DNA of 64,000 bases from Actinomycetota bacterium (GTDB lineage: Bacteria; Actinomycetota; UBA4738; HRBIN12), in assembly GCA_036374435.1 (NCBI GenBank), contig DASUTU010000030.1, forward strand, positions 15,539 to 79,538. Direction: 5' to 3'. The notes beneath the pieces are model-generated. The model was not told the DNA's origin, made no database searches, and was given only the letters and a program-made list of their open reading frames with translations. Both the position numbers and the translations under genes were made by a program. This document shows, one piece after another, positions 8,765-33,237 of this stretch. The stretch's first letter is position 1, and every line of letters begins with the position of its first letter.

Positions 8765-8987
8765 GGAAGGTCCGCCGGACCCGATCCGCCCACCCCGGTA
8801 GGATGGCCCCGACGTGAACTCCACATCCGACCCCGAGGCACGGCTCGAACGCGTGAACAGGTTCAACTGGCGCGCACCCATCCACCTCGTGACCATCTCG
8901 ACGATCCCCCGGCGGAGGCATCCGGCAACCGGGTAGCCCGGCACGCGTGCGAACGGGCCTCCGAGGCCGACCAACCCGGAGGCGGAC

Positions 8988-16954: not shown

Positions 16955-17701
16955 TCAGGCCGGTCCGTACCAGGGCGGGGCCGTCCCGCCGGTCAAGATC
17001 TCCTTGCGCCTGCGCTCGGCGCGGTCGAGCAGCGGGAGGTGGATGGCCAGCCCCACCGCGGACCCGATCAGGAACATCCACGAGTACCGGTCCACGCTTC
17101 CCGAGTCATGCCGCATGAGGAGGGTCACGCGGGGCCCTCCGCCCGTGAAGTACCCCTGCGCCGCAGCCAGCGAGACGTCCTCCGCGGTGGCGAACCGGAT
17201 CTGCTCGATCGCGAAGTCGCTCGTCTGCAGGGCACCTGGCTCGTGGACGCCCAGTCCGAGGTCCTCGTTCGCCCGCTCCGCGAGGAACCCCTGGGCGGCG
17301 GTCGTCACGCTCTGGACCGATGCGCTGTCCGCGTTGTTCGAACCGGGAGCTCGCCACTCCTGCCCGTCGGGGTAGGTGGCGTAGGCGTCGTAGACCGGCT
17401 CCGGGTCGGTGCCGACGGACTCGACCACCCACGCGGGCTCGGCGCCTCGAGGGCCGAGGTTCACGGGGGTGTCCAGGCCCTGGCTGACCCAGAACCCGGT
17501 GAGCCAGATGAACGAAATGATGAACATCCATCCGAAGAAGCCCACCGCCAGAACGAGGTACCCCATCCGCCTGCCGAAGACCGCCGAGAGCAGCAGCAGG
17601 ACGCTGCCGACGAACAGGACGAACCCGAGGACGGTGGCCAGGCCGCCCTTCAGGAGCGTCTCGCAGGGAATCTCGAACCCGACGCACGTCTGGGCGAGCA
17701 T
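16955..17701 (-). CDS. Membrane protein (3 TM) of unknown function, last large gene of the bc-complex operon
   Basis: Start moved to MLAQTCVGFEIPCETLLKGG (ATG overlaps the cytochrome c stop, TGATG). The first 123 aa of ORF 16955..18070 are low-complexity read-through. Confidence 0.55.
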   Translation of the reverse strand: MLAQTCVGFEIPCETLLKGGLATVLGFVLFVGSVLLLLSAVFGRRMGYLVLAVGFFGWMFIISFIWLTGFWVSQGLDTPVNLGPRGAEPAWVVESVGTDPEPVYDAYATYPDGQEWRAPGSNNADSASVQSVTTAAQGFLAERANEDLGLGVHEPGALQTSDFAIEQIRFATAEDVSLAAAQGYFTGGGPRVTLLMRHDSGSVDRYSWMFLIGSAVGLAIHLPLLDRAERRRKEILTGGTAPPWYGPA

Positions 17702-18438
17702 CAGACTTGCGCCTCCGGGTTGTCCGTGGCCGGCGGCTTGTCCGGGAACTCCTCGTCGGCCTGCGTCTGCGCGTCGGGGTTGGTGCACACGTTCTGCTCG
17801 GCCGGCACCTGCTCCTCGTCCTGGATGCTCACGAGGTACGCCACGATGTCGTTGATCTGCTGCTCGTTCAGGGCCCCCTCGTAGCGAACGCTCCACGACG
17901 GCATCAGGCCCCGCCCCTGCTCGATCGTCGTGTAGATGTCGGCCAGGCGGTGGATCGCCGGGTGGCCGGTGAACGGGCCCCCACACACCGTGGTGAGGTT
18001 CGGCACCTGGATCGGAGTGTTCGTCTCCGTGTTGAGGATCACGCCGCCGGTCAGGTCGTCCCCGTGACACTGGACGCAGCCCACGCCGGACTGGTTCTCC
18101 TCGGTGAACAGCTCGACGGCGTGACGTCCGCGCTCGATCGCGCTGTCGGTGACCTCTCGTTCCTGCGTGAGGTTGACGTTCGGCTCGAACAGCCAGACCA
18201 CCGGGACCCAGATCACGAAGAACACGACCATCAAGACGCCCCAGCCCTGCAGCTTCTGGAGCAGGGGGGTCTCGAGATCGGCGTCGGAGGGACCCGGACG
18301 CATCCCATGCGGGACGTCCGGCGGCGGAACGACACCCGGACGGCGGCCACGCAGGAGCAGGACGGCGCCGGCGACGGCGACGACGACGGCGCCGCCGATG
18401 GCGAGGATGACCGCCTGCGCCGGGCTGATCGCGATCAC
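17701..18438 (-). CDS. Membrane-anchored mono-heme cytochrome c
   Basis: Two N-terminal TM helices, then a single CxxCH (GCVQCHGDD). Confidence 0.8.
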   Translation of the reverse strand: MIAISPAQAVILAIGGAVVVAVAGAVLLLRGRRPGVVPPPDVPHGMRPGPSDADLETPLLQKLQGWGVLMVVFFVIWVPVVWLFEPNVNLTQEREVTDSAIERGRHAVELFTEENQSGVGCVQCHGDDLTGGVILNTETNTPIQVPNLTTVCGGPFTGHPAIHRLADIYTTIEQGRGLMPSWSVRYEGALNEQQINDIVAYLVSIQDEEQVPAEQNVCTNPDAQTQADEEFPDKPPATDNPEAQV

Positions 18439-18448
18439 CGCGTCCCCC

Positions 18449-19186
18449 TCATACGGTGGCCACGCAGAACGGCCCTGCCTGGGGGCGCTGGAGCGTGTCG
18501 GTGCCGCGCGGCGGTCCCGGGACGACCACGGAGGTGTCGACCAGCACGTCCCCGGCGTCGGTGATCTCGATCCGGAACCGGTCCAGTCCGCGAGGAGCGG
18601 GACCCAGCTTGTATTCGCCCGCGGTGTTGTACTTCGAGCCGTGACAGGGACACTCGAACCACTGCGACTGCTTGCAGAACGGGACCCGGCAGCCGAGGTG
18701 CACGCAGCGCTGGTACAGCGGCATGACCCCCTCCGCCGCCAACTGGTCGGACGCGTAGTCGATGTCGCCGGAGGGACGGCCGTCGTAGATCACGATGTAG
18801 AAGCGGCCGGTGCCCGAATACACGGGCTCCTCGGTGGAGTTGATCGCGCGGCGGATGTCGGCGAGCTTTCCGGCGTTGATCACCGAACCGAACCCGCCCC
18901 GGAGGTTCGGCCACAGGAACGCGAGGGTCGCGCCCCCGAACTGCGCCCCGAACACAAGGAGGGAAGCAACCAGCGACTTCCGGAAGAACTCGCGCCGGCT
19001 GAGGGGCTTGGGGGCCTTGGGGGCGGGCTCGCCCAGCGCCGCGGCGGTGGCGGCGGCCTCGGCGGCCCGCTGCTCGCGCCGCGCTCGGAGGAACGAGAGC
19101 CCGAAGGCGATCGCGAACAGGTCGACGATGACGATGACGACGATCGCTACCAGCGTCCCGGTCGAGATGGCCAGCACCGGCGTCAT
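18449..19186 (-). CDS. qcrA: Rieske [2Fe-2S] iron-sulfur protein of the cytochrome bc/b6c complex
   Basis: CVHLGCRVP and CPCHGSKY boxes, and the Tat-like SRREFFRKS. Start taken at MTPVLAIS (ATGA overlap with the subunit IV stop). Confidence 0.85.
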
Positions 19187-20088
19187 AACTCGAAGAACAC
19201 CCCTTGCGCCCACGGCCAGACCCAGTTGTAGCCGGTGCCGCGGAAGAAGGACCCGATGATGGTCAACGTGGCGCCGAACATCATCAGCATCGTGAACATG
19301 GTGATCGCGAGCTTGCGATCACCCGGCTTGGTGCTCGGGTTGCGGTCGACGTAGGGAACCACCGCCAGGGCGAGCAGCACCAGCGTCGGAGCGAAGAGCA
19401 CGCCGGCCACCATGGGGTGGAAGTACCGCAGCAGCTCCTGGAGGCCGAGGAAGTACCACGGGGCCTTCGACGGGTTCGGGGTCAGGTTCGGGTTGGCGAG
19501 CTCGCGCAGCGGCGCATTGACGAACGTCGAGAAGATCACCAGCCCGCCGAGCACGATCAGCATGGCCACGAACTCCTCGATCAGCAGGTGCGGCCAGACG
19601 TTGATCCGGTCCCCCTGCTCCCGCTCGACCCGCTGGATCCCCTCGGGCGGCACCAGCGCCAGCAGCCGGTGTTTCTCCTGCGCCCCCTTCTTCGGCTCCG
19701 GCACGTTCCCGGTCGGAGCCGGCGCCTGCCTGGTGGGAGCCAATGTGGTGGCACCGGCGGCGGGCGCCGAAGCGGCGGCAGCCGCCGCAGGTGCCGACGC
19801 AGCAGCAGCGGGGGCCGGAGCTGCGCTCGGAGCGGAGGTCGCCGCAGGCGCCGGCGACTCGGCCGCGCCCGAAGCCGCTCCACCATCCCCCTCCGCCGCG
19901 GCTGAGCGAGCCGGCGTGGCGGCGGCCGGAGCGGGCGCGCTGCCCTCTCCGGTCTTGGCTCTATGGGCTCGAACGGCAGCCGAGCGGGCCCGGCCTTCGG
20001 CGACCCGCCGGTCGGTGCCCTTAGCGAGCTCGTCGGCCAGGACCCGGTCGAAGGTCTCCTGGTCGAGCGGGGTGTCGTCGCGCGCCAT
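19183..20088 (-). CDS. Cytochrome b C-terminal half (b6f subunit IV-like, 3 TM) with an N-terminal extension of about 150 aa
   Basis: C-terminal [28 protein letters not shown] matches PetD/QcrB-C. The N-terminus has a conserved 28-aa motif plus an Ala/Pro-rich linker. Confidence 0.8.
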
Positions 20089-20104
20089 GTCCTTGCCTCA
20101 GCTC

Positions 20105-20875
20105 CTACAGCGGTCCCGAGATGCCACCGTCTTTGCGGATCCGCCAGAAGTGCACCGCCAGGAAGATCACCAGCACGAACGGCAGCGCGAGCACGTGCAA
20201 CACGTACCAGCGGAGCAACGTGTCCGGTCCCACCACCACGCCGCCGAGCAATAGGAAGTTCGCCTGGCTGGCGATCATGGGCGAGTACGCGGCGAGGGAC
20301 GTCCCCACCGTAACCGCCCAGATCGCGAGCTGGTCCCACGGCAGCAGGTAGCCGGTGAACGACAGCCCGAGCGTCAGGAACAGCAAGACCACGCCGACCA
20401 CCCAGTTGAACTCCCGCGGCGGCTTGTACGAGCCCGTGTAGAAGACGCGGGCCATGTGCAGCGTCACGGTGAAGACCATCAGGTGGGCGCCCCAACGGTG
20501 GATGTTGCGGACCAGGTCGCCGAAGAACACGGACGTCCGGATGTTCTGCATGTCGGTGTACGCCTGGGCCGCGCCGATCTCCGCGGCGGGCCGGTAGAAG
20601 AACATCAGGAAGATCCCGGTCACCGTGAGCAGGATGAACAGGAAGAACGAGAGGCCGCCCAGGCAGAACGTGTAGGTCAACTTCAGCCCGTGACGCTTCA
20701 TCTTGACGGGGTGGAGGTGGTACAGGACGTTGTTCATGGTCGCGAGCGCCCGGTCGCGCGACGTGTCCTTGTAGCCCTTGCGGAAGATCGATCCCGGCCG
20801 GAAGATCGACTTCCAGACCTCGGTCTCCCGAACTCGATCCAGCACCTCGCTCGGCGAGGGCGGTTTGAGCTTCAC
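20105..20875 (-). CDS. qcrB: Cytochrome b6 (N-terminal, heme-binding half of a split cytochrome b)
   Basis: GTG start ([26 protein letters not shown]) after GGAAGGAGCGGG. Heme-ligand His in RWGAHLMVF and [16 protein letters not shown]; 4 TM helices. Confidence 0.85.
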
Positions 20876-20897
20876 CCCGCTCCTTCCCCAGCTCTCG

Positions 20898-21296
20898 TTA
20901 TTCGGCCTCGGCCCGCTGTGACTCGGGCACGGCGGCCATCCGTCGCTGCCCCGAGGACGGTTCGGGCAGCCGCGCATAGTACAGCGTGTCGGTGGGGCAG
21001 CGCTCGACGCAGACCGAGCACCGAGTGCAGGCGTTGTCGTCGACCACGAAGATCGAGAAGGCCTGGCCGATCTCTGCGTCCACGGCCTCGTCGGCCGCCC
21101 CCTCCACGATGTCCGTGGACATCATGAAGATGCAGTTCCACGGGCAGACGTCCTCGCAGGCCCGGCACAAGATGCAGTTGTCCGGGTCAAGCATGAGGTG
21201 TTTGGGCGAACGAACCCCCTGGGTCAGCCACGAGGGGTCGACGCCCTCCACGACGTAGTCGGTGTGGATGTCGACTTCGGTCTTCGTGAACGGCAT
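20898..21296 (-). CDS. 2[4Fe-4S] ferredoxin
   Basis: [12 protein letters not shown] and [12 protein letters not shown]. Start at MPFTKTEV, preceded by GGAGGA. Confidence 0.8.
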
Positions 21297-21312
21297 CAGT
21301 CCTCCGAACCCG

Positions 21313-21663
21313 TCATCGATACCCTCCGGTCGGGCGATCGCCCGAGGCACCCCGGAGCTTGCGGCGCCAGTTCTGCATGATCGCGGCCGCGACCACGATC
21401 GTGACGAACGGCCCGATCGACAGGTTCACCGCGACGAAGTCGCGGGCGAGAGGCCGCCAGTCCGACGTCCCCGAAAGCCCGTCCCACCCGAGCGTCTGTT
21501 CGGCGAAGTACAGCCAGAACGACGGGATCACCGCCATCGAGACGACAGAGAAGAAGCCCAATCCCACCGCGAACACGACGGCCTTCGTCCAGGTCCATTC
21601 GAAATCCCGGACGATCGGCTCGGCCCGCTCCCGCAGCTTGACCAGCGGTTCCGGGACCTTCAT
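21313..21663 (-). CDS. Small membrane protein (2 TM), first gene of the bc-complex operon
   Basis: 116 aa; hydrophobic segments AVVFAVGLGFFSVVSMAVI and GPFVTIVVAAAIM. Confidence 0.45.
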   Translation of the reverse strand: MKVPEPLVKLRERAEPIVRDFEWTWTKAVVFAVGLGFFSVVSMAVIPSFWLYFAEQTLGWDGLSGTSDWRPLARDFVAVNLSIGPFVTIVVAAAIMQNWRRKLRGASGDRPTGGYR

Positions 21664-21774
21664 ACGACCCCCACCATCACGCGAAACGTAACTCCCAACT
21701 CGATCGCGCGTCCCGAAGGCGGATTCTACACGGGCCCCTGGTGCCTCCCGGGCGCCGAGCTCCTGCGGGACGTC

Positions 21775-21792
21775 TCGTGAAAGCCTTCACAA
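21775..21792. promoter_or_regulatory. Rex operator TCGTGAAagccTTCACAA in the divergent bc-operon / ccdA intergenic region
   Basis: Matches TTGTGAA-N4-TTCACAA at 13 of 14 half-site positions. Lies 112 nt upstream of the bc-operon start and about 78 nt upstream of the ccdA start. Confidence 0.6.
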
Positions 21793-21869
21793 GCGCACGT
21801 TCCAACTATGGCAAGGAGCCTTGGCCGCCGCAACCCACTCTCCACGGAGCCCACTCCTACACTTGGGGT

Positions 21870-22607: not shown

Positions 22608-22701
22608 GCTCCCGGTGTTCGACGGACGGCCGCGCCGCTAGGATCGAACCAGTGGGGGTCCTCGATCCTGCACGAGGCCGACGCCGATTCGAAGGTGTAC
22701 A

Positions 22702-23883
22702 GTGCGCCGGCATTCGGTGACCCGGCGATGCTCGGTTCGGAGGGATCCGGCGAAGGTGCGTAGGAAGACGCTGCTGGCCGTCGGCCTGGTGGCCCTGGCC
22801 GCGGTCCTCGGCGCGTGCGCCCCGAATGCCACCCAGGACTCCCTGGAGCCGGCGGGGGAGTTCGCGCGCAAGTCCCACGATCTGTTCGTGCCGGTCTTCT
22901 GGGTGGCGACCGGCATCTTCGTCGTGGTCGAGGGCGCCCTGGTCGTCTTCGCGTTCCGGTATCGCCACCGCAAGGGCCGCGAGGGGATCCCTCCGCAGGT
23001 GCACGGGAACACCCGGCTCGAGGTGGCCTGGACGATCCTTCCGGCCGTGATCCTTGCCGGCGTGGCCGTTCCCACGGTCGCGACGATCTTCGACCTGGCG
23101 CGCCAGCCCGAAGAGGGCACCATGCGGGTGGACGTCCTCGGGCACCAGTGGTGGTGGGAGTTCAACTATCTCGAGCAGGGGTTTACCACCGCGAACGAGC
23201 TCCACATCCCCACGGGCGAGCCCGTCTACCTCCGCCTGTGCGGCGTGGGGCTGGGCGGCATCCCGGACGCCAAGACGCCGGTACCGACAGAGTGCCAGCC
23301 GGGCCCACCGGACGGCCCCGCGGCGGCGGCCGTCGGCGACGCGGTGGTCCACTCGTTCTGGGTGCCGCAGCTCGCCGGGACGATCGACGTCGTGCCGGGC
23401 CAGACCAATTTCTTGTGGATCGAGGCCGACGAGCCGGGCCGATACCCGGGGCAATGCAAGGAGTTCTGCGGGCTCTCTCACGCGTACATGAAGTTCGTCG
23501 TGGTGGCGCACGACCCGGGGGACTACCAACGGTGGGTGGAGGGGCAGCAGGCCCCGGCCGCGATGCCCGAGCCGGAGACCGCGGCCGCGTCGGGCGCGCA
23601 GACGTTCGCCGCCCAGAACCGGTGCACGCGGTGCCACACCATCGACGGGCTGGAGGACCAGGACGGCCAACCCGTCGTCGGCTCGAACGGAGCCCCCGAC
23701 CTGACGCACTTCATGAGCCGCGAGTGTTTCCGCGGGTGCACGCTGCCCGTCACCGAGGAGAACCTGCGGCGATGGCTGCAGAACCCGCAGGCCGTGGAGG
23801 CCGGGTCGTGGATGGTGGTCGACCCGCCGCTGACCGAGGGCGAGATCGACGACCTCGTCGCGTTCCTGCAGACGTTGCGATGA
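22702..23883 (+). CDS. ctaC: Cytochrome c oxidase subunit II, caa3 type with a C-terminal cytochrome c domain
   Basis: CuA site H..CKEFCGLSHAYM and C-terminal NRCTRCH (CxxCH). Lipoprotein-type signal. A GTG at 22756 is an alternative start. Confidence 0.85.
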   Translation: MRRHSVTRRCSVRRDPAKVRRKTLLAVGLVALAAVLGACAPNATQDSLEPAGEFARKSHDLFVPVFWVATGIFVVVEGALVVFAFRYRHRKGREGIPPQVHGNTRLEVAWTILPAVILAGVAVPTVATIFDLARQPEEGTMRVDVLGHQWWWEFNYLEQGFTTANELHIPTGEPVYLRLCGVGLGGIPDAKTPVPTECQPGPPDGPAAAAVGDAVVHSFWVPQLAGTIDVVPGQTNFLWIEADEPGRYPGQCKEFCGLSHAYMKFVVVAHDPGDYQRWVEGQQAPAAMPEPETAAASGAQTFAAQNRCTRCHTIDGLEDQDGQPVVGSNGAPDLTHFMSRECFRGCTLPVTEENLRRWLQNPQAVEAGSWMVVDPPLTEGEIDDLVAFLQTLR

Positions 23884-23899
23884 CGGAGGGGGTGATGCG

Positions 23900-25798
23900 G
23901 TGGCGAGCGTGAGCGTTCCGGCGCGGCGTCCAGGCCTCCTCGGCCGTCCGACGTCCACCACCGGGCTGTGGTCCTGGTTCACCACCGTGGACCACAAGAA
24001 GATCGGCATCCTCTACGGGGTCACCGCGTTCGCGTTCTTCCTCGTCGGCGGCGTCGAGGCCCTCCTGATCCGGGTACAGCTGGCCAGGCCGGACCAGAAC
24101 GTCATCTCGGAGGCGGCGTTCAACGAGCTGTTCACGATGCACGGCGTGACGATGGTGTTCCTCGTCGTCATGCCGCTCTCGGCCGCCTTCTTCAACTACT
24201 TCATCCCCCTCATGATCGGGGCCCGGGACGTGGCGTTCCCGCGGCTGAACGCCTACAGCTACTGGGCGTTCCTGTTCGCGGGCATCTTCATCTATTCGAG
24301 CTGGTTCCTGGGCGGCGCGCCGAACGGCGGCTGGTTCGGCTATCCGCCGAACTCGGTCCTCGACCCCACGCGAGGGATGACGTTCTACTCGCTCGGCCTG
24401 CTGATCGCGGGGATCGCCTCGACCGTGTCCGCGGTGAACCTGGCCGTGACGGTGATCAACATGCGGGCGCCCGGCATGACGCTGTTCCGGATGCCGGTGT
24501 TCGTGTGGATGGGGCTCGTGGTCCAGCTCCTGCTGGCCTTCTCGCTTCCGATCGTCACGATCGGGCTGGTCGAGCTGTTGTTCGACCGTCGGTTCGGGAC
24601 CCACTTCTTCGACGCCGCGGCGGGGGGGAGCCCCGTCCTGTGGCAGCACCTGTTCTGGTTGTTCGCGCACCCAGAGGTCTACATCCTGGTCCTGCCCGCC
24701 ATGGGCATCGTGTCCGAGATCCTGCCGGTGTTCTCGCGCAAACCGCTGTTCGGCTACCAGTTCGTGGTCTTCAGCGGCATCGCCATCGGCTTCATCGGGT
24801 TCGGCGTGTGGGCCCACCACATGTTCGCGGTGGGCCTGGGCCCGATCGCCAACACGGCGTTCGGCATCTCGACGATGATCATCGCCGTGCCGACCGGCGT
24901 GAAGATCTTCAACTGGCTCGGCACGATGTGGCGCGGCGACATCCGCTTCACCACGCCGATGCTGTTCGCCATCGGGTTCATCGGCATGTTCGTGATCGGT
25001 GGGCTCTCGGGCGTCTCGCACGCCGTCGTGCCCGCGGACTACCAGCAGACCGACACGTACTACATCGTGGCGCACTTCCACTACGTGCTCTTCGGCGGCG
25101 CGATCTTCGGGCTCTTCGGCGGGATCTACTACTGGTGGCCGAAGGTGTTCGGCCGGATGTTGTCCGAGCGGGCCGGCAAGTGGAACTTCTGGATCATGCT
25201 CGTCGGGTTCAACATGACGTTCGGGCCGATGCACGTGCTGGGGCTCCAGGGCATGCCGCGGCGGATCCAGAGCTACCCGGAGTCGCTCGGCCTGACGTTC
25301 TGGAACACGGTGTCGACGGTGGGCGCCTTCCTGATCGCCGTGAGCGTGCTGGTGTTCCTCGTCACCGCCGTGGCGAGCTTCCGCAGGCCCAAGGAGATGG
25401 AGGCCGATCCGTGGGACGCCAGGACGCTCGAGTGGTTCACGTCCTCGCCGCCGCCGGAGCACAACTTCGACGAGATCCCCACGGTGCATTCCCTGGATGA
25501 GCTCTGGCACCGCAAGTACGCCGAGACCCACGGCGGCAGGGTGGTCCCCGTTCCGGCCGGCGGCTCGGGCCGGCCGGCGTCGGGTCACGGCCGGAGCGAA
25601 GGGGACGGCGGGCACGGGTCGGAGCACGGCGGGCACGGGATCCACCTCCCGGGGCCGTCGTATTACCCGCTGATCGCGTCGCTCGGGCTCCCCATCGTCG
25701 GGTACGGGTTGATCTTCGGGTGGTGGATGGTCGGGGTCGGCCTGCTGGTCACGCTGGCCGGCTTCTACGGCTGGATCCTGGAGCCCTCGGCGGAGTGA
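23900..25798 (+). CDS. ctaD: Cytochrome c oxidase subunit I with a C-terminal CtaF-like 2-TM extension
   Basis: WFTTVDHKKIGILY.. is canonical COX1. There is an extra His-rich linker of about 75 aa (GHGRSEGDGGHGSEHGGHG), then LPGPSYYPLIASLGLPIVGYGLIFGWW, which resembles the C-terminal helices of actinobacterial CtaF. Confidence 0.85.
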   Translation: MASVSVPARRPGLLGRPTSTTGLWSWFTTVDHKKIGILYGVTAFAFFLVGGVEALLIRVQLARPDQNVISEAAFNELFTMHGVTMVFLVVMPLSAAFFNYFIPLMIGARDVAFPRLNAYSYWAFLFAGIFIYSSWFLGGAPNGGWFGYPPNSVLDPTRGMTFYSLGLLIAGIASTVSAVNLAVTVINMRAPGMTLFRMPVFVWMGLVVQLLLAFSLPIVTIGLVELLFDRRFGTHFFDAAAGGSPVLWQHLFWLFAHPEVYILVLPAMGIVSEILPVFSRKPLFGYQFVVFSGIAIGFIGFGVWAHHMFAVGLGPIANTAFGISTMIIAVPTGVKIFNWLGTMWRGDIRFTTPMLFAIGFIGMFVIGGLSGVSHAVVPADYQQTDTYYIVAHFHYVLFGGAIFGLFGGIYYWWPKVFGRMLSERAGKWNFWIMLVGFNMTFGPMHVLGLQGMPRRIQSYPESLGLTFWNTVSTVGAFLIAVSVLVFLVTAVASFRRPKEMEADPWDARTLEWFTSSPPPEHNFDEIPTVHSLDELWHRKYAETHGGRVVPVPAGGSGRPASGHGRSEGDGGHGSEHGGHGIHLPGPSYYPLIASLGLPIVGYGLIFGWWMVGVGLLVTLAGFYGWILEPSAE

Positions 25799-25805
25799 GG
25801 ACCTG

Positions 25806-26435
25806 ATGGCCACTGTCGAACACGCGGACGAACGCCCACTCGTCGTCGAGGAGCACGCCACCAGCACGGGGTTGCCGAACACGAAGCTCGCGATGTGGCT
25901 GTTCCTGGCTTCGGACTGCCTGTTGTTCGGCGCCCTGATCTCGACGTACGTGCTCTATCGGGGCGCCAGCACCACCGGGCCGTTCCCGAACGACGTCTTC
26001 GACATCCCCTACACGTCCGTGTCGTCATTCGTGCTGCTGGCCAGCTCGCTCACGATGGTGCTCGCCCTGGCGGCGATCCAGCGCGGTGACGTGGCCCGCT
26101 CGCGCGTGTGGCTGCTGGCGACCGCGCTGCTCGGGTCGACCTTCGTCGGGGGGCAGGTCTACGAGTTCACCGCGTTCCACGACGAGGGCCTCACGCTGAG
26201 CGCCAACGTGTTCGGGTCGTCGTTCTACGTCCTGACCGGCTTCCACGGGACGCACGTCACGGTCGGCGTCCTGATGTTGCTGACGTTGGTGTTCCTCTCT
26301 CTGGCCGGGCGCCTCGGCCCCGAACGCGCGGAGACGGTCGAGATGGTCGGCCTGTATTGGCACTTCGTCGACATCGTTTGGATCGTCATCTTCACGGTCG
26401 TCTACCTGATCCCGACCGGGAACGGGAGTCCCTGA
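25806..26435 (+). CDS. ctaE: Cytochrome c oxidase subunit III
   Basis: Typical COX3 helices (WLFLASDCLLFGALI, FYVLTGFHGTHV). Confidence 0.9.
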   Translation: MATVEHADERPLVVEEHATSTGLPNTKLAMWLFLASDCLLFGALISTYVLYRGASTTGPFPNDVFDIPYTSVSSFVLLASSLTMVLALAAIQRGDVARSRVWLLATALLGSTFVGGQVYEFTAFHDEGLTLSANVFGSSFYVLTGFHGTHVTVGVLMLLTLVFLSLAGRLGPERAETVEMVGLYWHFVDIVWIVIFTVVYLIPTGNGSP

Positions 26436-26776
26436 TGGCCACCGAGCCCGTCGAACGCTCCGAGCGGATCGCGGCCAGACAACGCACTCACGCGCGCCAC
26501 CCGAGCACGAGGGAATACGTGCGGATCGCGATCGTCCTGGCCGTGGTCACGGCGGCCGAGGTGGCCATCTACTACATCGACTGGATCCACGAGAACGGAC
26601 TCCTGATCCCCCTGCTGTTCCTGTTCTCGTTGATCAAGTTCTCGCTCGTCGTGATGTGGTTCATGCACCTGAAGTTCGACAGCCGGACGTACTCGCGCTT
26701 CTTCCTCATGGGCCTGGCGGGCGCGATCACCCTGTACCTCATCGTGTTGTTGCTGTTTCGGACGTTTGCGAACTGA
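26435..26776 (+). CDS. ctaF: Cytochrome c oxidase subunit IV (prokaryotic COX4 / Bacillus CtaF type)
   Basis: 113 aa, 3 TM. TGATG overlap with ctaE. Confidence 0.7.
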   Translation: MATEPVERSERIAARQRTHARHPSTREYVRIAIVLAVVTAAEVAIYYIDWIHENGLLIPLLFLFSLIKFSLVVMWFMHLKFDSRTYSRFFLMGLAGAITLYLIVLLLFRTFAN

Positions 26777-26778
26777 CC

Positions 26779-27606
26779 ATGCCCGGCTGGCATCCCCACG
26801 CCGACGTCTGGCTCCTCCTCGGAGGCCTCTGGGTGGGGTATCTGGTCGCCTGGCGGCGACGCGCGGCCGACGTCCCTCCCGCCCGAGAGCAACGGCGCCG
26901 CCGCACCGCGCTGTTCACCGTCGGGATGGCGCTCCTGCTGTTGGCGTCCGACTGGCCGGTGCACGACCTGGCCGAGGAGCGCCTGTATTCGGCGCACATG
27001 GTTCAGCACCTCGTCTACACGCTCGTGGCGGCGCCGTTGCTTCTCGCGGGGGTGCCCGCGTGGATGTGGCGAGCGCTGCTGCGCCCGTCGCCCGTGTGGG
27101 CGGTGTTCGGGTTCCTGACGCGCCCGATCGTCGCGCTCGCCGTGTTCAACGGGCTGCTCCTGCTCACGCACTGGCCGGAGGTCGTGAACGCCTCCGTGAG
27201 GTCGGAGTGGACCCACTTCGGCCTGCACGTCCTGATCGTCGGATCGGCCGTGGTGATGTGGTGGCCCGTGCTCTCCCCGCTGCCCGAACGCCCGCCATTG
27301 TCCCCCCCGCTCCAGATGGTCTACCTGTTCCTGCAGTCGCTGGCGCCGACCATCCCCGCGTCGTTCCTCACCTTCGGGACCTCGCCGCTCTACGCGGCCT
27401 ACGAGTCCTTCCCCAGGACGTGGGGGCTCAGCGCGCTGGACGACCAGCTCATCGCCGGCCTGGTGATGAAGATCGCCGGCGGGCTGATCCTGTGGGCGTT
27501 CATCGCGGTGATCTTCTTCAACTGGCACGCCCGGGAGCGAACGGGGTGGGACGCCCTGGGTCTGCGGCAGGTGGAGCGCGACGTCCGGGCGAGGATGGCC
27601 CGGTGA
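26779..27606 (+). CDS. ctaG: Cytochrome c oxidase assembly factor CtaG (caa3 type)
   Basis: SAHMVQHLVYTLVAAPLLLAGVP motif; multi-TM. Confidence 0.7.
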   Translation: MPGWHPHADVWLLLGGLWVGYLVAWRRRAADVPPAREQRRRRTALFTVGMALLLLASDWPVHDLAEERLYSAHMVQHLVYTLVAAPLLLAGVPAWMWRALLRPSPVWAVFGFLTRPIVALAVFNGLLLLTHWPEVVNASVRSEWTHFGLHVLIVGSAVVMWWPVLSPLPERPPLSPPLQMVYLFLQSLAPTIPASFLTFGTSPLYAAYESFPRTWGLSALDDQLIAGLVMKIAGGLILWAFIAVIFFNWHARERTGWDALGLRQVERDVRARMAR

Positions 27607-28547
27607 AACCGACGACCCGGGACCGGCTCGTGCTCCCGATCCTGCTGCCGGTCGGGATCCTCGTGGCCCTGGCGGCGGCGTTGTGGGGGTTCTCGCGCAT
27701 CCTCCTCGGCATCCACGGGTCGCCGGCCACCGCCGTGGCGCTCGTCGTGGCCGCGGCGATCCTCGTGGTCTCGGCTCTTGCCGCCTCACGGCCCCAGGTG
27801 CGGGGGTCGACGATCGGCGCGGTGATCGGGGGGACCGCGGGGATCGCCATGCTTGCCGGCGGTATCGCGCTCGCGGTCGTGGCTGCCGACGAAGGCGAGC
27901 ACCCGCCCGGACCGCAGGAGCCGGGGGGAGCGGTGCCGCTCGTAGCTCAGGACATCGCGTTCGACCCCACGATGCTGACGGTCCCCGCGGGGCAGCCGTT
28001 CACCATCGCCTTCGACAACCGGGACGCCGGCATCCAGCACAACATGGTGATCTTCGACAACCCGGACTTCTCGGGCCCGCCGCTGTTCGACGGGGAGATC
28101 GTGACCGGGCCGATCCAGGTCGACTACGACGTCGACCCGCTCGAAGCGGGCACCTACTACTTCTACTGCGTGGTGCACCCGAACATGACCGGCCAGATCG
28201 AGGCGGTCGAGGAGCCGGGCGGCGGCGAGGGCCCCGAACCCGGAGGGCCTGGAGCGGGCGAAGGGCCGGTCGTGGCCGCCATGAACCTGGCGTTCGACAC
28301 CGACACGATCGAGCTTCCCGCGGACGCCCCGACCATGATCACGTTCGACAACCAGGAGGCGGTCCCGCACAACATCGCGATCTATTCCGACGACAGCCTC
28401 CGGGAGCTGCTGTTCCAGGGCGACATCGTCACCGGCCCCACGACGATCGAATACGAGATCCCGCCGCTGCCGGCCGGCGAGTACTACTTTCAATGCGACG
28501 TGCACCCGAACATGAACGGCCGGGTGGTCGTCGGGGGTGGTGGCTGA
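27603..28547 (+). CDS. Membrane-anchored tandem (two-domain) cupredoxin / blue copper protein
   Basis: N-terminal TM helix, then two plastocyanin-like ligand sets: H..YYFYCVVHPNM and H..YYFQCDVHPNM. GTGA-coupled to ctaG. Confidence 0.75.
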   Translation: MKPTTRDRLVLPILLPVGILVALAAALWGFSRILLGIHGSPATAVALVVAAAILVVSALAASRPQVRGSTIGAVIGGTAGIAMLAGGIALAVVAADEGEHPPGPQEPGGAVPLVAQDIAFDPTMLTVPAGQPFTIAFDNRDAGIQHNMVIFDNPDFSGPPLFDGEIVTGPIQVDYDVDPLEAGTYYFYCVVHPNMTGQIEAVEEPGGGEGPEPGGPGAGEGPVVAAMNLAFDTDTIELPADAPTMITFDNQEAVPHNIAIYSDDSLRELLFQGDIVTGPTTIEYEIPPLPAGEYYFQCDVHPNMNGRVVVGGGG

Positions 28548-28558
28548 CGGCTCGGTCG

Positions 28559-30388
28559 CTAGGCGAGCCCGCCCGTCGGCACGATCGCGTCGACGGCCAC
28601 CGAGGCGAACAGCAGCCCGAGATAGGCGATCGAGAACCGGAACAGGTGGACCGGCTCGGCCGGGGACGCCTCGCGCCACAGCCGGAGGGCGCGCCACACG
28701 AACCAGCCCCCCAGGACGAGCGCCGTGGCCGCGTAGACCGGGCCCATGTGCCCGACCGGGATCAAGACCAGCGAGGCCGCGAACAGGACCAGCGAGTAGA
28801 GCAGGATTTGGCGGCGGGTCTCCTCGGGGCCGCGGACCACCGGGAGCATCGGGACCCCCGCGGCCGCGTAGTCGCCCTGGTAGCGCATGGCCAGCGCCCA
28901 GAAATGCGGCGGGGTCCACACGAACACGATCGCGAACAGCACCCAAGCCGGCGGCCCCACGGTGCCGGTGACGGCGGCCCACCCGACCAGTGCGGGGACC
29001 GCCCCAGCCGCGCCGCCGATGACGATGTTCTGCACGCTGGTTCGCTTCAGCCACAAGGTGTACACGAAGACGTAGAAGGCGATCGCGGACAGCGCCAGCG
29101 AGGCCGCCAGCATGTTCACGGCGATCGCGAGGAAGAAGAACGAGACCGCGCCGAGCATGTACCCGAAGGCGAGAGCGCGTTCGGGCGCGATGCGGTGCGC
29201 CGGCAGGGGGCGCCGCCTCGTCCGGCGCATCACCTCGTCGATGTCCCGGTCGAGGTAGCAGTTGATGGCGTTCGCGGAGCCGGCAGCCATGGCCCCGCCG
29301 AGCAGCGTCGCGCCCACCAGCCACAGGGAGGGCATCCGACGCTCGGCCAGGACCATCGCCGGGACCGTCGTGATCAGCAGCAGCTCGATGATGCGCGGCT
29401 TGGTGAGCTGGACGTAGGCGGCGGTGGTCTCGCGGAGCGATCCGCGTCTGCCGTTCCCGCCGACGCCGGCGCGATCCGCCCGCATTCGGCCTCGGGCGAG
29501 GGCCCGGCCGAGCGTGGCCACCACCATCAGGACCGCCCAGATCGCGCCGGAGAACGCCACGTGCGCCGTGACGGCGGCCGCGCTCAGCTCGGACCAGACG
29601 TTGGCCGCCCCGACGAGGATCTGCCCCGCGAACAGGACGAGCGCAATCGTCGTCAGGACCACCAGAGCGGGCGAGCGCACCGGAGACGTGCGTGCCCGGA
29701 TCGCGAGCCAGAGCACCAGCACGAGCGCGAGCGCCGCCAACACCCGGTGGACGAACATCAGCGTTGCCGCGCCTCCGAGGGTGGGCACCAGCCGACCGTC
29801 CATCAGCGGCCAGTCCCGAAACGCCAGTCCCGCCCCCTCGGCCCGGACGTACGCCCCCACCACGAGGAGCGCCCCCACCGCGGCGGCGGTCCCCAGGGCG
29901 AGGCGAGCGAGGGCCGGATCCGCTCCTGCCGGCGGCTCGTCGCCACCTCGGTGCGGCTCGAACCGGAAGGTGTTCGCGGCGACCACGGTCACCACGGCGA
30001 CCAGGGCCATGGCGGTCGCGAAGTGCAGCGCCACCACGGTGGCCTCCAGGCCGCCCTCGACGACCACGCCGCCCAGCCCGGCCTGGACGAGGACGACGCC
30101 CACGGCGGCGACGGCCGGGCCGACGATTGCGGGCTGGTGTCGCAGCCGGCGCCAGGCCATCACGGCCTGCAACGCCACGAGCACCACCACGATGCTGGCG
30201 AGCAGGCGGTGCGCGTATTCGATGACCGCGTGGTACTCGAGCGGCGGGATCCATCGCCCGTAGCAGGTGGGCCAGCCCGGGCACCCCAGCCCCGACGCGG
30301 TCGCCCGGACGAGGCCCCCTACCGCCACCAGCAGCAACGTCGAAGCCGTCGTGGTGATCGCGAGCTTCTGGAAGCGGGTCATCGGCAT
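28559..30388 (-). CDS. ctaA-ctaB: Fused heme A synthase (CtaA, N-terminal) and heme O synthase / protoheme IX farnesyltransferase (CtaB, C-terminal)
   Basis: A single uninterrupted ORF. The N-terminal half has GCPGWPTCYG and His pairs (CtaA). The C-terminal half has YVQLTKPRIIELLLITT..DRDIDEVMRRTRRRPLP (UbiA-type CtaB). Start taken at MPMTRFQKL; the listed M is 19 codons upstream. Confidence 0.8.
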   Translation of the reverse strand: MPMTRFQKLAITTTASTLLLVAVGGLVRATASGLGCPGWPTCYGRWIPPLEYHAVIEYAHRLLASIVVVLVALQAVMAWRRLRHQPAIVGPAVAAVGVVLVQAGLGGVVVEGGLEATVVALHFATAMALVAVVTVVAANTFRFEPHRGGDEPPAGADPALARLALGTAAAVGALLVVGAYVRAEGAGLAFRDWPLMDGRLVPTLGGAATLMFVHRVLAALALVLVLWLAIRARTSPVRSPALVVLTTIALVLFAGQILVGAANVWSELSAAAVTAHVAFSGAIWAVLMVVATLGRALARGRMRADRAGVGGNGRRGSLRETTAAYVQLTKPRIIELLLITTVPAMVLAERRMPSLWLVGATLLGGAMAAGSANAINCYLDRDIDEVMRRTRRRPLPAHRIAPERALAFGYMLGAVSFFFLAIAVNMLAASLALSAIAFYVFVYTLWLKRTSVQNIVIGGAAGAVPALVGWAAVTGTVGPPAWVLFAIVFVWTPPHFWALAMRYQGDYAAAGVPMLPVVRGPEETRRQILLYSLVLFAASLVLIPVGHMGPVYAATALVLGGWFVWRALRLWREASPAEPVHLFRFSIAYLGLLFASVAVDAIVPTGGLA

Positions 30389-30405
30389 CGGAGGTCGGCG
30401 CCCGT

Positions 30406-30423
30406 GAACGATAGCAGTCGTTC
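30406..30423. promoter_or_regulatory. Perfect palindrome GAACGA-tagcag-TCGTTC in the ctaAB / polyprenyl-synthase divergent region
   Basis: 18-bp inverted repeat 18 nt upstream of the proposed ctaA-ctaB start and 55 nt upstream of the divergent gene. Confidence 0.35.
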
Positions 30424-30477
30424 CCCCGCGGGCCGATCCCCACACCGGCCGGCGACCCGTCTTGCGATACTCCTCCG

Positions 30478-31371
30478 GTGAGCCGCGACGCGACGCCGAA
30501 CGCCGCCCGACCGCCGGCGGACGCCCGTGACCGACTGGACGCCGAGCTGGAGCGTTTCCTGGGCGAGCGCCGGGCGGAGCTCGCGGCGCTCGATCCCGCG
30601 GCGGTCGCCCTCGTCGACGAGCTTCTGCGGCTGCTGGCGGCGGGCGGCAAACGGCTTCGACCGGCGTTGTGCCTGTGGGCCCATCGTGCGGCCGGTGGGG
30701 CGGAGGGCGGCGGTGCGGTTCGGGCGGCGGCGGCCCTCGAGCTCCTTCACACGTTCGCGCTGATCCACGACGACGTCATGGATGCGTCGAGGACACGCCG
30801 CGGTGTGGCCTCCTCGTGGGCGTGGTTCGCGCAGTCCGCGCCTCCCGGGACGGATGCCGACACCTACGGGAGGTCGGTGGCGATCTTGGTGGGCGACCTC
30901 GCCGCGGTGCTCGCCGAGCAGATGCTCCGCACGTGCGGGGCGTCCCCGGTGGCGCTCGGGCTCGCCATGGACCGGTTCGACCGGATGCGGACGGAGATGG
31001 CGGCGGGCCAGCTCCTCGACGTCCGCGGCGCCGGCGCGGATCGCGTACGCGTGGCGGCCCTGAAGACGAGCTCCTACACGGCAGAAGGCCCGGTGTTGAT
31101 CGCCACGGCCTTGGCCGGGGCCGGCCCGGCGGTGGAGGGTCCGCTCCGCGTCTACGCCGGGCTGGTGGGAGAGGCCTTTCAGCTCCGGGACGACGTCCTG
31201 GACGGCGACGCGGAGCCGGGCGCCGCCGGCCGGGTGAACGAGCTCGTCGATCGCGCCGTGGGCACGTTGTCGGGCGCGCCGCTGGATCCGCATGGGGTCG
31301 CCGGGCTGACCGGGCTCGCCATGTTGCTGCGCCTCGAGCCGCCGGTCGTGCCCGCGGCGGCGGAGGCCTGA
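30478..31371 (+). CDS. Polyprenyl (farnesyl/geranylgeranyl) diphosphate synthase
   Basis: LIHDDVMD (first DDxxD) and QLRDDVLD (second Asp-rich motif). Confidence 0.75.
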   Translation: MSRDATPNAARPPADARDRLDAELERFLGERRAELAALDPAAVALVDELLRLLAAGGKRLRPALCLWAHRAAGGAEGGGAVRAAAALELLHTFALIHDDVMDASRTRRGVASSWAWFAQSAPPGTDADTYGRSVAILVGDLAAVLAEQMLRTCGASPVALGLAMDRFDRMRTEMAAGQLLDVRGAGADRVRVAALKTSSYTAEGPVLIATALAGAGPAVEGPLRVYAGLVGEAFQLRDDVLDGDAEPGAAGRVNELVDRAVGTLSGAPLDPHGVAGLTGLAMLLRLEPPVVPAAAEA

Positions 31372-31811
31372 TGCAGCTCCGGCGGGCCGACGTGGTGGCC
31401 GCCCGCCGGCTGTTCGGCGGGTTGCCGGTGGCGAGCGTCGCCACGATCGGCCAGGACGGGTTCCCCCACGTCGTGCCGCTGTGGTTCGTCTGGCCCGACG
31501 ACGCGATCTACGTCTCGACCAGGCTGGAGAGCCGGACGTGGGGCAACGTCCGGGTGGATCCCCGGGTCGCGCTCACCGTCGACGTCGGCCGGGCCTGGGT
31601 CGAGATCGCCGGGATCGAGGTGCGAGGCCACGCCGAGCCCCTGCCGGCCGAACGCCCCGAGATGCGAGGCGCCATCTCCGCGTGGCACGAGAAGTACCGG
31701 TCGTTGTTGTCGGGGAACGGGTTCCCCCGGTTCGCCGAGGAGGTCCGAGGCCTGGGGTTCCTTCGCGTCGTCCCGGAGCGGATCGCCGCTTGGGACCACG
31801 CCCGGCACTGA
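31371..31811 (+). CDS. Pyridoxamine 5'-phosphate oxidase-family (FMN/F420-binding split-barrel) protein
   Basis: 146 aa; VATIGQDGFPHVVPLWFVW motif. TGATG overlap with the upstream gene. Confidence 0.65.
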   Translation: MQLRRADVVAARRLFGGLPVASVATIGQDGFPHVVPLWFVWPDDAIYVSTRLESRTWGNVRVDPRVALTVDVGRAWVEIAGIEVRGHAEPLPAERPEMRGAISAWHEKYRSLLSGNGFPRFAEEVRGLGFLRVVPERIAAWDHARH

Positions 31812-31855
31812 CCGTCTCGAGGCTTGGGACCACGCCCGGCACTGACCGGCTCGAG
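31788..31855. repeat. 34-bp perfect tandem direct repeat x2 (GCTTGGGACCACGCCCGGCACTGACCG[T/G]CTCGAG)
   Basis: Copy 1 is at 31788-31821 and contains the stop codon of the PPOX-family gene. Copy 2 is at 31822-31855. There is one mismatch. Confidence 0.9.
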
Positions 31856-31885
31856 GCGGCGAGCCGCCGCCCACCCCCCCGGCGG

Positions 31886-31915
31886 TTGAACCTCTCGAGC
31901 GGGGCGGCATAGGGT
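31886..31915 (+). promoter_or_regulatory. Candidate sigma-A promoter (TTGAAC-N18-TAGGGT) for the ggr-nuoA-N operon
   Basis: -35 TTGAAC and -10 TAGGGT; the first Rex operator overlaps the predicted +1. Confidence 0.35.
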
Positions 31916-31933
31916 TTGTGAGGAACTTCACAA
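31916..31933. promoter_or_regulatory. Rex operator 1 upstream of ggr-nuoA-N: TTGTGAGgaacTTCACAA
   Basis: 13 of 14 half-site positions match TTGTGAA-N4-TTCACAA. Confidence 0.65.
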
Positions 31934-31948
31934 GTCGTTTAGCATTGC

Positions 31949-31966
31949 TTGTGAAGGAATTCACAA
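31949..31966. promoter_or_regulatory. Rex operator 2 upstream of ggr-nuoA-N: TTGTGAAggaaTTCACAA (perfect consensus)
   Basis: All 14 half-site positions match. Centre-to-centre spacing to operator 1 is 33 bp. Confidence 0.7.
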
Positions 31967-31968
31967 GC

Positions 31969-33237
31969 GTGGGGGACAAGCCGTTGCCAGGTGGTTCGAA
32001 CACGCACGTCGAAACCGACGTCTTGATCGTCGGGGCGGGGCCCGGCGGCTCGACGGCCGCGTACCACCTGGCGCGCCACGGCGTGGACGTCACCGTCGTC
32101 GAGAAGTCCAGCTTCCCCCGCGAGAAGGTCTGCGGAGACGGGCTCACGCCGCGGGCGATCGTCCAGCTCCGCAAGATGGGGATCGATACCGACGATCCCC
32201 GGTTCGAGCGTCACGAGGGCCTTCGCATCTACTCGCGCAGGACCAGGCTCGAGTTGCCGTGGCCCGCGCTCGAGTCGTTCCCGGGGTTCGGCCTGACCAT
32301 GACCCGGTCGAGCTTCGACGAGCTCCTGGCGCGGAGGGCCGAAAAGGCCGGGGCCGCGCTGCGCGAGCGCGTGGAGGCCCTGGCGCCGATCCGCGACGAC
32401 GGCTGGGTCACGGGGGCGCGGGTCCGGGACCTCGAGCGGGACGTGGAGCTCGACGTTCGAGCGCGATTCGTCATCGCCGCCGACGGGGCGGCCTCGCGGT
32501 TCGCCGGTGCCGTCGGCGTCCGCCGTGATCCGTCCAAGCCGCTCGGCATCGCCGCGCGCCGGTACTACCGGATCGATCGCCATCCCGGTCCGTGGCTCGA
32601 GGTGTGGATGGACCTGTGGGACGGCGAATCGCTCATGCCGGGCTACGGGTGGTTCTTCGCGTTGTCCGACGGCTCCGTCAACCTCGGCGCGGGGCTGCTG
32701 AACACCTTCCGCAACTTCCGCGACGTGTCGGCGCAACAAGTGTTCGATGCGTTCGCCCGGATGCTCCCGCCGGGGTGGGGGGTGGACGAATCGACCGCCG
32801 AGGGTCGGACGCTCTCGGGTCCGCTGCCGATGGGGATGAACCGAGATCGTGTGACCGTGCCGGGGATGTTGCTCGTCGGCGACGCCGCGGGGATGGTCAA
32901 CCCGTTCAACGGTGAGGGCATCGCGTACGCCATGGAGTCCGGCGAGCTCGCCGCCGAGCTGGTCCACGACGCGCTCGTGCTCGACCGTCCGGGGCTCGCC
33001 CACGTGTATCCGACCATCCTGCGCGAGCGGTATGGGCGGTACTTCCGGATCGGGACGAACTTCGTCCGCGCGATCGGCAACCCGACTGTGATGCGGACCC
33101 TCACCGATTACGGCCTGCCACGCGCGTGGCTGATGCGGTTCGCCCTTCGGGTGATGGGCAACCTCACGGACGGATCGGAAGGGGACCTGCAGGACAAGAT
33201 GATGTACGGGCTCGAGCGCCTGGCCCGAGCGCCGTAG
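31969..33237 (+). CDS. FAD-dependent geranylgeranyl reductase family protein (MenJ-like menaquinone/prenyl reductase)
   Basis: DVLIVGAGPGGSTAAYHLA (FAD dinucleotide-binding), CGDGLTPR and GDAAGMVNPFNGEGI. Start placed at the GTG just after the Rex operators. Confidence 0.8.
   Translation: MGDKPLPGGSNTHVETDVLIVGAGPGGSTAAYHLARHGVDVTVVEKSSFPREKVCGDGLTPRAIVQLRKMGIDTDDPRFERHEGLRIYSRRTRLELPWPALESFPGFGLTMTRSSFDELLARRAEKAGAALRERVEALAPIRDDGWVTGARVRDLERDVELDVRARFVIAADGAASRFAGAVGVRRDPSKPLGIAARRYYRIDRHPGPWLEVWMDLWDGESLMPGYGWFFALSDGSVNLGAGLLNTFRNFRDVSAQQVFDAFARMLPPGWGVDESTAEGRTLSGPLPMGMNRDRVTVPGMLLVGDAAGMVNPFNGEGIAYAMESGELAAELVHDALVLDRPGLAHVYPTILRERYGRYFRIGTNFVRAIGNPTVMRTLTDYGLPRAWLMRFALRVMGNLTDGSEGDLQDKMMYGLERLARAP

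Follow-up and report, generated by a model that had tools for sequence, protein, structure and literature searches.

Membrane-tethered blue copper proteins that replace cytochrome c and are encoded with or bound to terminal oxidases are already known, and include auracyanin, sulfocyanin, halocyanin, AcoP/rusticyanin and the "Cup" proteins of cytochrome oxidase (COX) clusters. Auracyanins A and B of Chloroflexus and the auracyanin of Roseiflexus take electrons from alternative complex III, and two reports propose auracyanin as the link between the quinol oxidoreductase and its acceptor (PMC7439408, PMC10873879). Sulfocyanin (SoxE) of Sulfolobus and Ferroplasma and the halocyanin of haloarchaea are membrane-bound parts or donors of the oxidase that stand in for cytochrome c, and the Ferroplasma sulfocyanin associates with oxidase subunit II (PMC10654088). 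AcoP is a membrane-associated cupredoxin which binds both cytochrome c and the oxidase (PMC4059628), and membrane-bound Cup proteins are found within COX clusters (PMC8239418). Here we describe a gene in a stretch of 64,000 nucleotides from an Actinomycetota bacterium (contig DASUTU010000030.1; the whole stretch is called the window below), which directly follows ctaG of a caa3 oxidase operon and encodes a three-transmembrane-helix anchor with two type-1 copper domains. Based on the sequence and on structure models, we propose with a probability of roughly 55% that its product is an extracytoplasmic, membrane-anchored electron-transfer protein working with the caa3-type oxidase. The new features are the polytopic three-helix anchor, the tandem arrangement of two or three type-1 domains, the fixed place after Caa3_CtaG in Actinomycetota and the fusions to a subunit IV-like sequence. 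The literature searched contains no description of this actinobacterial family and offers just the general idea that oxidase clusters of iron oxidisers can include cupredoxins.

Translation of the open reading frame (ORF) at 27603-28547 (+) yields 314 amino acids (aa) and a stop codon, and the N-terminus of the protein, M-K/R-x-x-T-R-D-R, matches the starts of its homologues in the alignment. The GTG start shares the sequence GTGA with the TGA stop of ctaG, and a Shine-Dalgarno-like GAGGA sits 7 nt upstream of it. From the gene overlap alone, the cupredoxin gene would be co-expressed with the cta genes. An earlier sequence-only reading of the window had placed a 314-aa ORF with a GTGA overlap after ctaG, which is borne out by the translation and the junction sequence. 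It had also described two type-1 copper sites, quoting a motif and an upstream His for each; both motifs are present and both ligand sets are complete. The single N-terminal transmembrane helix given in that reading has to be corrected, as hydropathy and AlphaFold2 both give three helices.

A Pfam search of the window protein revealed Cupredoxin_1 (PF13473) in two stretches with 81.5 bits over a cut-off of 27, together with Copper-bind (PF00127) with 36.4 bits over a cut-off of 21.2. All eight copper ligands are invariant in an alignment of 14 sequences and again in one of 67 sequences. The mean column identity of the latter alignment is 53%, and the invariance of the ligands at this level of divergence indicates that the copper sites are not due to chance. 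In both domains the ligand loop is C-x2-H-x2-M, the shortest type, which resembles that of amicyanin. AlphaFold2, run with the 67-sequence alignment, modelled both copper domains confidently as small cupredoxins with a per-residue confidence (pLDDT) of 94-98, in agreement with the two domains of the sequence-only reading.

Comparison of the domain 2 model with solved structures by Foldseek yielded TMq values of 0.64-0.83 to amicyanin (0.71), auracyanins (0.79-0.83), plastocyanin and rusticyanin. Other matches were an uncharacterised Cupredoxin_1 protein of Bacillus anthracis and a Nitrosopumilus cupredoxin, and AcoP ranked 38th with 13% identity. The best fold matches of the modelled domain 2 are all one-electron carriers or oxidase-linked cupredoxins, and the models show the Greek-key beta-sandwich of a cupredoxin for both domains, with electron carriers as the nearest folds. 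Searches by sequence gave a similar picture. For domain 2 the best match is amicyanin, with an E-value of 2.3e-5 and with the ligand positions aligned: His, Cys and His coincide, and the wild-type Met is matched in the chains of P94 mutants. The best sequence matches of domain 1 in the PDB are auracyanin A (E 4.8e-7) and plastocyanin. Its His, Cys and His align with the corresponding positions of the plastocyanin chain, and the similarity to auracyanin A is significant only over the N-terminal half (query residues 7-62), the loop region aligning poorly. The protein falls below the cut-offs of two equivalog models, amicyanin TIGR02657 (45.2 bits against 110.2) and plastocyanin TIGR02656 (30 bits against 87.85), and the genes around it are of the cta, bc and nuo kinds rather than mau. 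The SoxE model (PF06525) is matched by the whole protein with 22.5 bits over a cut-off of 21; only residues 235-263 align, and no single stretch passes.

The two domains in series could also be read as a two-domain multicopper oxidase or a NirK-like enzyme, since two-domain laccases and a NirK come out on top (E about 1e-9 to 1e-10) when the whole model is compared with the PDB by Foldseek. However, these matches have a root-mean-square deviation of 11-17 Å and TM-scores of 0.17-0.28, and they reflect nothing else than two serial cupredoxin domains. The domains are about 90 aa each, which is the minimal size of a cupredoxin, and are joined by a disordered linker rather than by a rigid interface. 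The whole protein has six His residues and no His-x-His motif, leaving no type-2/type-3 cluster and no type-2 site. Therefore, the multicopper oxidase is refuted, and we regard such an enzyme as almost certainly wrong.

The anchor shows hydropathy peaks at residues 6-38, 33-66 and 70-97, and AlphaFold2 places helices at 3-36, 40-61 and 68-96 with a pLDDT of about 66-84. The N-terminus probably lies inside and the C-terminus outside, as suggested by the positive charges on the N-terminal tail and on loop 2 (positive-inside rule). Two linkers follow, one on either side of the first copper domain, and are predicted to be flexible by a pLDDT below 50 at residues 96-107 and 206-218. Gly makes up 51% and Pro 14% of the linkers throughout the family, and their length varies between 2 and 45 residues. 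The anchor is as well conserved as the copper domains, with a mean identity to the window protein of 67% compared to 67% and 69%. It contains invariant or near-invariant prolines and arginines together with small-residue packing motifs, which in helix 3 are G76/A79/G80 and G86/G87. A search of the PDB gave no relative of the anchor sequence. A phmmer search with its 97 residues alone against 1.84 billion representatives was aimed at relatives bearing a cytochrome c, as such a swap would have shown functional equivalence. It returned 161 cluster representatives, and CxxCH is absent from the best 150 of them, so that no cytochrome c-bearing variant of the anchor appeared there. Type-1 loops are present in 86 of these 150, and the remainder are mostly fragments or frameshifted sequences. 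Among the best 150 matches, the anchor sequence occurs solely with cupredoxins or in fragments.

More than 1100 homologues were found, nearly all of them metagenomic and, where named, labelled "plastocyanin" or "cupredoxin domain-containing protein". When each species was represented by a single genome, 224 genomes proved to contain a relative. The records listed for 80 of these are all metagenome-assembled genomes, with no cultured isolate among them, and are nearly all assigned to Actinomycetota or Actinomycetes; most come from soil surveys and one from a hot spring. The family has two forms, with two copper domains (about 310-345 aa) or with three (about 413-445 aa). In the latter, the third domain copies the second, with 60% identity between them within a protein and 48% to domain 1.

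The genetic context is equally constant. Pfam matches and gene junctions confirm the earlier placement of the gene at the end of a caa3 oxidase operon, all junctions from ctaC through the cupredoxin gene in the window being 16 nt or less. The oxidase is assigned to the caa3 type by the Cytochrom_C domain of CtaC with its CTRCH motif. Among the first 84 loci, the order ctaC-ctaD-ctaE-ctaF-ctaG-cupredoxin is found in all 83 that have upstream sequence, and 60 of the 83 share the 4-nt overlap of start and stop with ctaG. The sequence-only reading had asked whether the gene co-occurs with a ctaC bearing a fused cytochrome c. The answer is positive, as CtaC carries CuA together with a single CxxCH in 54 of the 55 complete cases; the gene that differs is truncated. 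Distant relatives recognised through the anchor (35-42% identity; loci L085, L086 and L087) also lie directly after Caa3_CtaG with the same overlap, which indicates that the link to the caa3 operon is old and stable. At L087 (GCA_040960765.1, 71% GC) CtaC also bears CuA and one CxxCH; an aa3-type CtaC lacking cytochrome c was considered there, as Pfam gives no Cytochrom_C match, but was rejected upon finding a CVNCH motif. The cupredoxin gene of this locus (8001-8912) encodes the anchor with one sulfocyanin-like domain and a longer C-x4-H-x4-M loop, and it is followed at 8954-9382 by a gene for another cupredoxin, a separate protein of 142 aa that bears a lipoprotein-like signal (…LIAAC…).

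The place of the gene within an end-of-operon assembly block, consisting of ctaG, the cupredoxin and a convergent ctaA-ctaB, also allows the protein to be seen as an accessory or assembly factor, which would stabilise or protect the CuA/cytochrome c entry site of the oxidase or handle copper for the insertion of CuA or CuB, instead of carrying respiratory electrons. AcoP, a cupredoxin from an oxidase operon, binds the oxidase and sustains its activity (PMC4059628), and a thioredoxin/TlpA-like gene comes next in three-domain relatives. However, this neighbour may equally be the ResA of the adjacent cytochrome c maturation genes, the ligand sets are invariant and canonical for type-1 sites of electron transfer, and it is difficult to see why a chaperone would carry two or three flexibly tethered domains. 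We consider an assembly role improbable. A chaperone of the PCuAC or Sco kind was rejected, as the window protein contains neither H(M)X10MX21HXM, the PCuAC motif as given in PMC9145763, nor a CxxxC motif. The thioredoxin/Redoxin/AhpC-TSA-like genes lie directly after the cupredoxin gene at L001 (11315-11824), L003 (11263-11799) and L004 (2926-3462), and their products may resemble either ResA or a TlpA that serves CuA assembly; the window lacks a gene of this kind after the cupredoxin.

Five distant cluster representatives (P0242, P0238, P0252, P0231 and P0254) combine a common, homologous N-terminal extension with the anchor and one complete copper domain. Compared with Cyt_c_ox_IV (PF12270, cut-off 26.9), the Pfam model of the actinobacterial oxidase subunit CtaF, the extension of P0242 scores 31.1 bits and thus lies above the cut-off, those of P0238 (23.7 bits) and P0252 (18.2 bits) lie below it, and those of P0231 and P0254 gave no PF12270 match in Pfam. 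At L088 such a fusion gene (2244-3308) directly adjoins ctaD-ctaE on their downstream side. As Rosetta-stone fusions, these proteins point indirectly to a physical association of the anchor with the oxidase. In Mycobacterium smegmatis, the oxidase contacts complex III through a face made up of CtaE and CtaF (PMC8361435). Subunit I of the window, CtaD, also has a segment fused to it that resembles actinobacterial subunit IV, as its C-terminal extension at 25628-25783 (residues about 577-628) matches PF12270 with an E-value of 8.3e-7 and 29.6 bits. The relatives at L002 and L003 share this tail of CtaD.

Based on these findings, we propose how the protein might work. The three-helix anchor would dock it in the membrane beside the oxidase, as suggested by the conservation of the anchor and by the fusions to subunit IV-like sequence. 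The two small type-1 copper domains would then extend on their flexible Gly/Pro-rich tethers at the outer face of the membrane, where each might cycle between Cu(II) and Cu(I) and pass electrons to the fused cytochrome c and the CuA of CtaC. The most likely electron source would be the monoheme cytochrome c of the adjacent Rieske/cytochrome b6-type complex. This complex had been noted near the cta operon in the sequence-only reading, and it is indeed encoded there, divergently, at 17701-21350 (-). In such a scheme the protein would replace a small membrane-anchored cytochrome c, such as cytochrome cy or the Bacillus CccA, or an auracyanin. A putative specific role as a wire from the bc complex to caa3 is plausible. 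A stricter form of the same idea makes the protein a stoichiometric subunit of a Rieske/b6c-caa3 supercomplex, with the anchor at the subunit III/IV face of the oxidase, which in mycobacteria meets complex III, and the copper domains as the obligatory bridge from the bc cytochrome c to haem c and CuA of CtaC. We regard this form as rather unlikely; if true, it would be a copper wire within the supercomplex that replaces the second haem of the actinobacterial dihaem QcrC.

Several findings weigh against the proposed role. The bc complex has its own monoheme cytochrome c and CtaC a fused one, so that direct haem-to-haem transfer within a supercomplex could make a carrier unnecessary. All candidate partner domains, namely the copper domains and both cytochrome c domains, are acidic with isoelectric points of 4.0-4.6, leaving no electrostatic complementarity for a specific docking pair. 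Only one of the five fusion extensions passes the Pfam cut-off for PF12270. In addition, the identity between domain positions is 46-48% and that within one position 53-61%, and this weak differentiation of domains 1 and 2 argues against an ordered relay with distinct potentials. An ordered relay of specialised domains was therefore rejected, as the identity between positions is just slightly below that within positions and domain 3 is a copy of domain 2. The same weak differentiation favours several carriers per anchor that would be equivalent to each other.

If electrons pass directly from the cytochrome c of the bc complex to that of caa3, a shuttle between them could be redundant, and the copper domains might instead serve as an entry port through which a donor other than the bc complex, such as extracellular Fe(II) or an extracytoplasmic dehydrogenase, feeds caa3. 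The Ferroplasma sulfocyanin and the Acidithiobacillus rusticyanin/AcoP work in this way, and blue copper proteins of iron oxidisers are encoded with or bound to A-type oxidases (PMC4059628, PMC8239418, PMC10654088). Tethered domains would face the outside in a monoderm cell, and the weak SoxE signal of the window protein recurs in the distant relative P0224. However, the short amicyanin-type Cys-x2-His-x2-Met loops differ from the long loop of AcoP (PMC4059628). None of 88 loci has a linked gene resembling an outer iron oxidase or a dehydrogenase, and the conserved neighbourhood comprises cta, haem A, cytochrome c maturation, bc and nuo genes alone. The great majority of the source genomes are metagenome-assembled genomes from soil, not from acidic iron-rich sites. 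Therefore, we consider an entry port possible but unlikely, and prefer a membrane-anchored carrier that works with the caa3-type oxidase.

Table 1. Positions of the cupredoxin gene, its parts and the neighbouring respiratory genes in the window.
Feature	Position	Strand	Basis
Cupredoxin gene, three-helix anchor and two type-1 copper domains	27603..28547	+	Translation; Pfam Cupredoxin_1, Copper-bind
Coupling junction	27591..27606	+	GAGGA 27591-27595; GTG start 27603-27605; ctaG TGA stop 27604-27606
Three-transmembrane-helix anchor (aa 1-97)	27603..27893	+	Hydropathy, AlphaFold2 helices, conservation
Linker 1, acidic, Gly/Pro-rich (aa 96-109)	27888..27929	+	pLDDT <50 at 96-107; composition
Cupredoxin domain 1 (aa 110-203)	27930..28211	+	pLDDT 94-97; ligands invariant
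Domain 1 ligand codons	H146 28038-28040, C189 28167-28169, H192 28176-28178, M195 28185-28187	+	
Linker 2, Gly/Pro/Glu-rich (aa 204-222)	28212..28268	+	pLDDT <50 at 206-218
Cupredoxin domain 2 (aa 223-310)	28269..28532	+	Single-domain model pLDDT 96.9; Foldseek
Domain 2 ligand codons	H256 28368-28370, C298 28494-28496, H301 28503-28505, M304 28512-28514	+	
ctaC, COX2_TM, COX2 and fused Cytochrom_C	22702-23883	+	Pfam; CTRCH at 23623
ctaD	23900-25798	+	Pfam
ctaE	25806-26435	+	Pfam
ctaF	26435-26776	+	Pfam
ctaG, Bacillus-type caa3 assembly factor, directly upstream of the cupredoxin gene	26779-27606	+	Pfam Caa3_CtaG, E 2.7e-51
ctaA-ctaB fusion, convergent	28559..30445	-	Pfam COX15-CtaA and UbiA
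Rieske/cytochrome b6-type operon, divergent	17701..21663	-	Pfam

The cupredoxin gene ends 11 nt from the end of the convergent ctaA-ctaB fusion, which joins haem A synthase and haem O synthase in one protein of 628 aa; both the fusion and this arrangement are kept in related loci. Further downstream, 30478-33237 (+) encodes a polyprenyl synthase and a geranylgeranyl-reductase-like flavoprotein, and from 33126 (+) the complex I operon starts (nuoA onward). The order of polyprenyl synthase, flavoprotein and nuo genes recurs in relatives. Taken together, the flanking genes show that the locus gathers complexes I, III and IV with the genes for haem A and the quinone tail. Scans of 21300-30600 revealed no promoter-like sites, which is uninformative for an actinobacterium of 70% GC, and two terminator-like sites, which are no more than in shuffled sequence and equally uninformative. 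An Rfam scan of the window gave no match, and hence no rRNA or tRNA.

The Rieske/cytochrome b6 operon encodes, in this order, a 116-aa membrane ORF, a 2x[4Fe-4S] ferredoxin, a cytochrome b6-like protein, a PetD-like protein, the Rieske protein and the monoheme cytochrome c. The latter is encoded at 17701-18438, with its cytochrome c domain at residues about 85-245. Its single CxxCH lies at 18078, and haem c motifs in the 64-kb window are confined to this protein and CtaC. The 116-aa ORF (21313-21663, -) has no Pfam match and is 78% identical to its counterpart at L002. It is found together with the ferredoxin (20898-21350, -) upstream of cytochrome b also at L001-L003; a ferredoxin subunit within a bc-type operon is unusual. 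The ORF at 16955-18070 (-), just downstream of the cytochrome c gene, has hydrophobic stretches and no Pfam match; since it overlaps that gene at its upstream end, its true start is probably internal. A Rex-type redox-sensing protein (Put_DNA-bind_N and CoA_binding), encoded at 16140-16841 (+) some 900 bp away from the bc operon's end, is a candidate regulator of these respiratory genes. An extracytoplasmic function (ECF) sigma factor is encoded at 15202-15768 (-), paired with an overlapping gene for an RskA-type anti-sigma factor at 14459-15205 (-).

The region upstream of ctaC was compared across L001-L003 and L006-L008, of which L006 belongs to a closed metagenome-assembled genome of 3.45 Mb (OY969934.1). 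Directly after ccdA (21741-22607 in the window) comes ctaC, both in the window and in several of the relatives listed, most of which have the two-domain form. In three-domain and some two-domain relatives, resB and resC of cytochrome c maturation system II are inserted between the two genes. The interval between ccdA and ctaC of the window contains neither resB nor resC, and the rest of the window was not searched for them.

Actinobacteria are the textbook case of respiration with no mobile carrier, in which the dihaem QcrC is wired into an obligate bcc-aa3 supercomplex. The present family points to another solution in a large radiation of uncultured actinobacteria, most of which live in soil. 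The respiratory genes of the window are Bacillus-like by Pfam, with a split cytochrome b6, caa3 and Caa3_CtaG, and the radiation combines this b6c-type complex and caa3 oxidase with a putative copper carrier encoded within the oxidase operon, which in some lineages is fused to an oxidase subunit-like sequence. If the carrier role is true, the few blue copper proteins known to serve in respiration instead of cytochrome c would be joined by a bacterial, tandem-domain and polytopically anchored member. The family would also provide a compact model of how tether length and domain number tune electron delivery, and would tie the aerobic respiration of these abundant soil bacteria closer to the copper supply. 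The family is well conserved and experimentally tractable. The picture of actinobacterial respiration would change somewhat, and the principle will not surprise a specialist in bioenergetics.

Structural and genetic features of the window protein can be compared with those of the known systems. Similar to auracyanin, it has a type-1 His/Cys/His/Met site and would be tethered to the outer face of the membrane. Auracyanins, however, consist of one domain of about 120-140 aa in which the Cys...His...Met loop is longer, their genes do not follow ctaG, and they belong to a different phylum. Their tether is a lipid or a single helix, not a three-helix module. Amicyanin of Paracoccus and Methylobacterium has the same short Cys-x2-His-x2-Met loop and a similar domain size, whereas it is a soluble periplasmic protein. 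Its gene lies in mau clusters, and its electron donor is methylamine dehydrogenase. Sulfocyanin and halocyanin differ from the window protein in being archaeal and single-domain, and the match to SoxE is marginal.

AcoP and the Cup cupredoxins share with the window gene a place in the operon of an A-type haem-copper oxidase, the window gene being the last after ctaCDEFG and its product, like AcoP, membrane-associated. However, they are single-domain proteins of acidophilic Proteobacteria and do not share the common anchor. The site of AcoP is green, its ligand loop is unusually long and its potential is +566 mV (PMC4059628). The window protein, with loops of the shortest type, does not fit the combination of a long Cys...Met loop and a specific "region 2" by which the same report defines AcoP. 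In common with cytochrome cy of Rhodobacter and CccA/c550 of Bacillus, the window protein has an anchor in the membrane, a flexible linker and a small domain for one-electron transfer that is predicted to lie on the outer face, whereas these cytochromes use haem c, a single helix and a single domain and have no sequence relationship to it. The design of the window protein parallels that of Bacillus CccA. Cytochrome cy is integrated in bc1-oxidase supercomplexes (PMC8361435). With its anchor, its predicted disordered linkers and its small redox domains, which probably face outwards, the window protein thus appears to have the layout of a membrane-anchored respiratory carrier.

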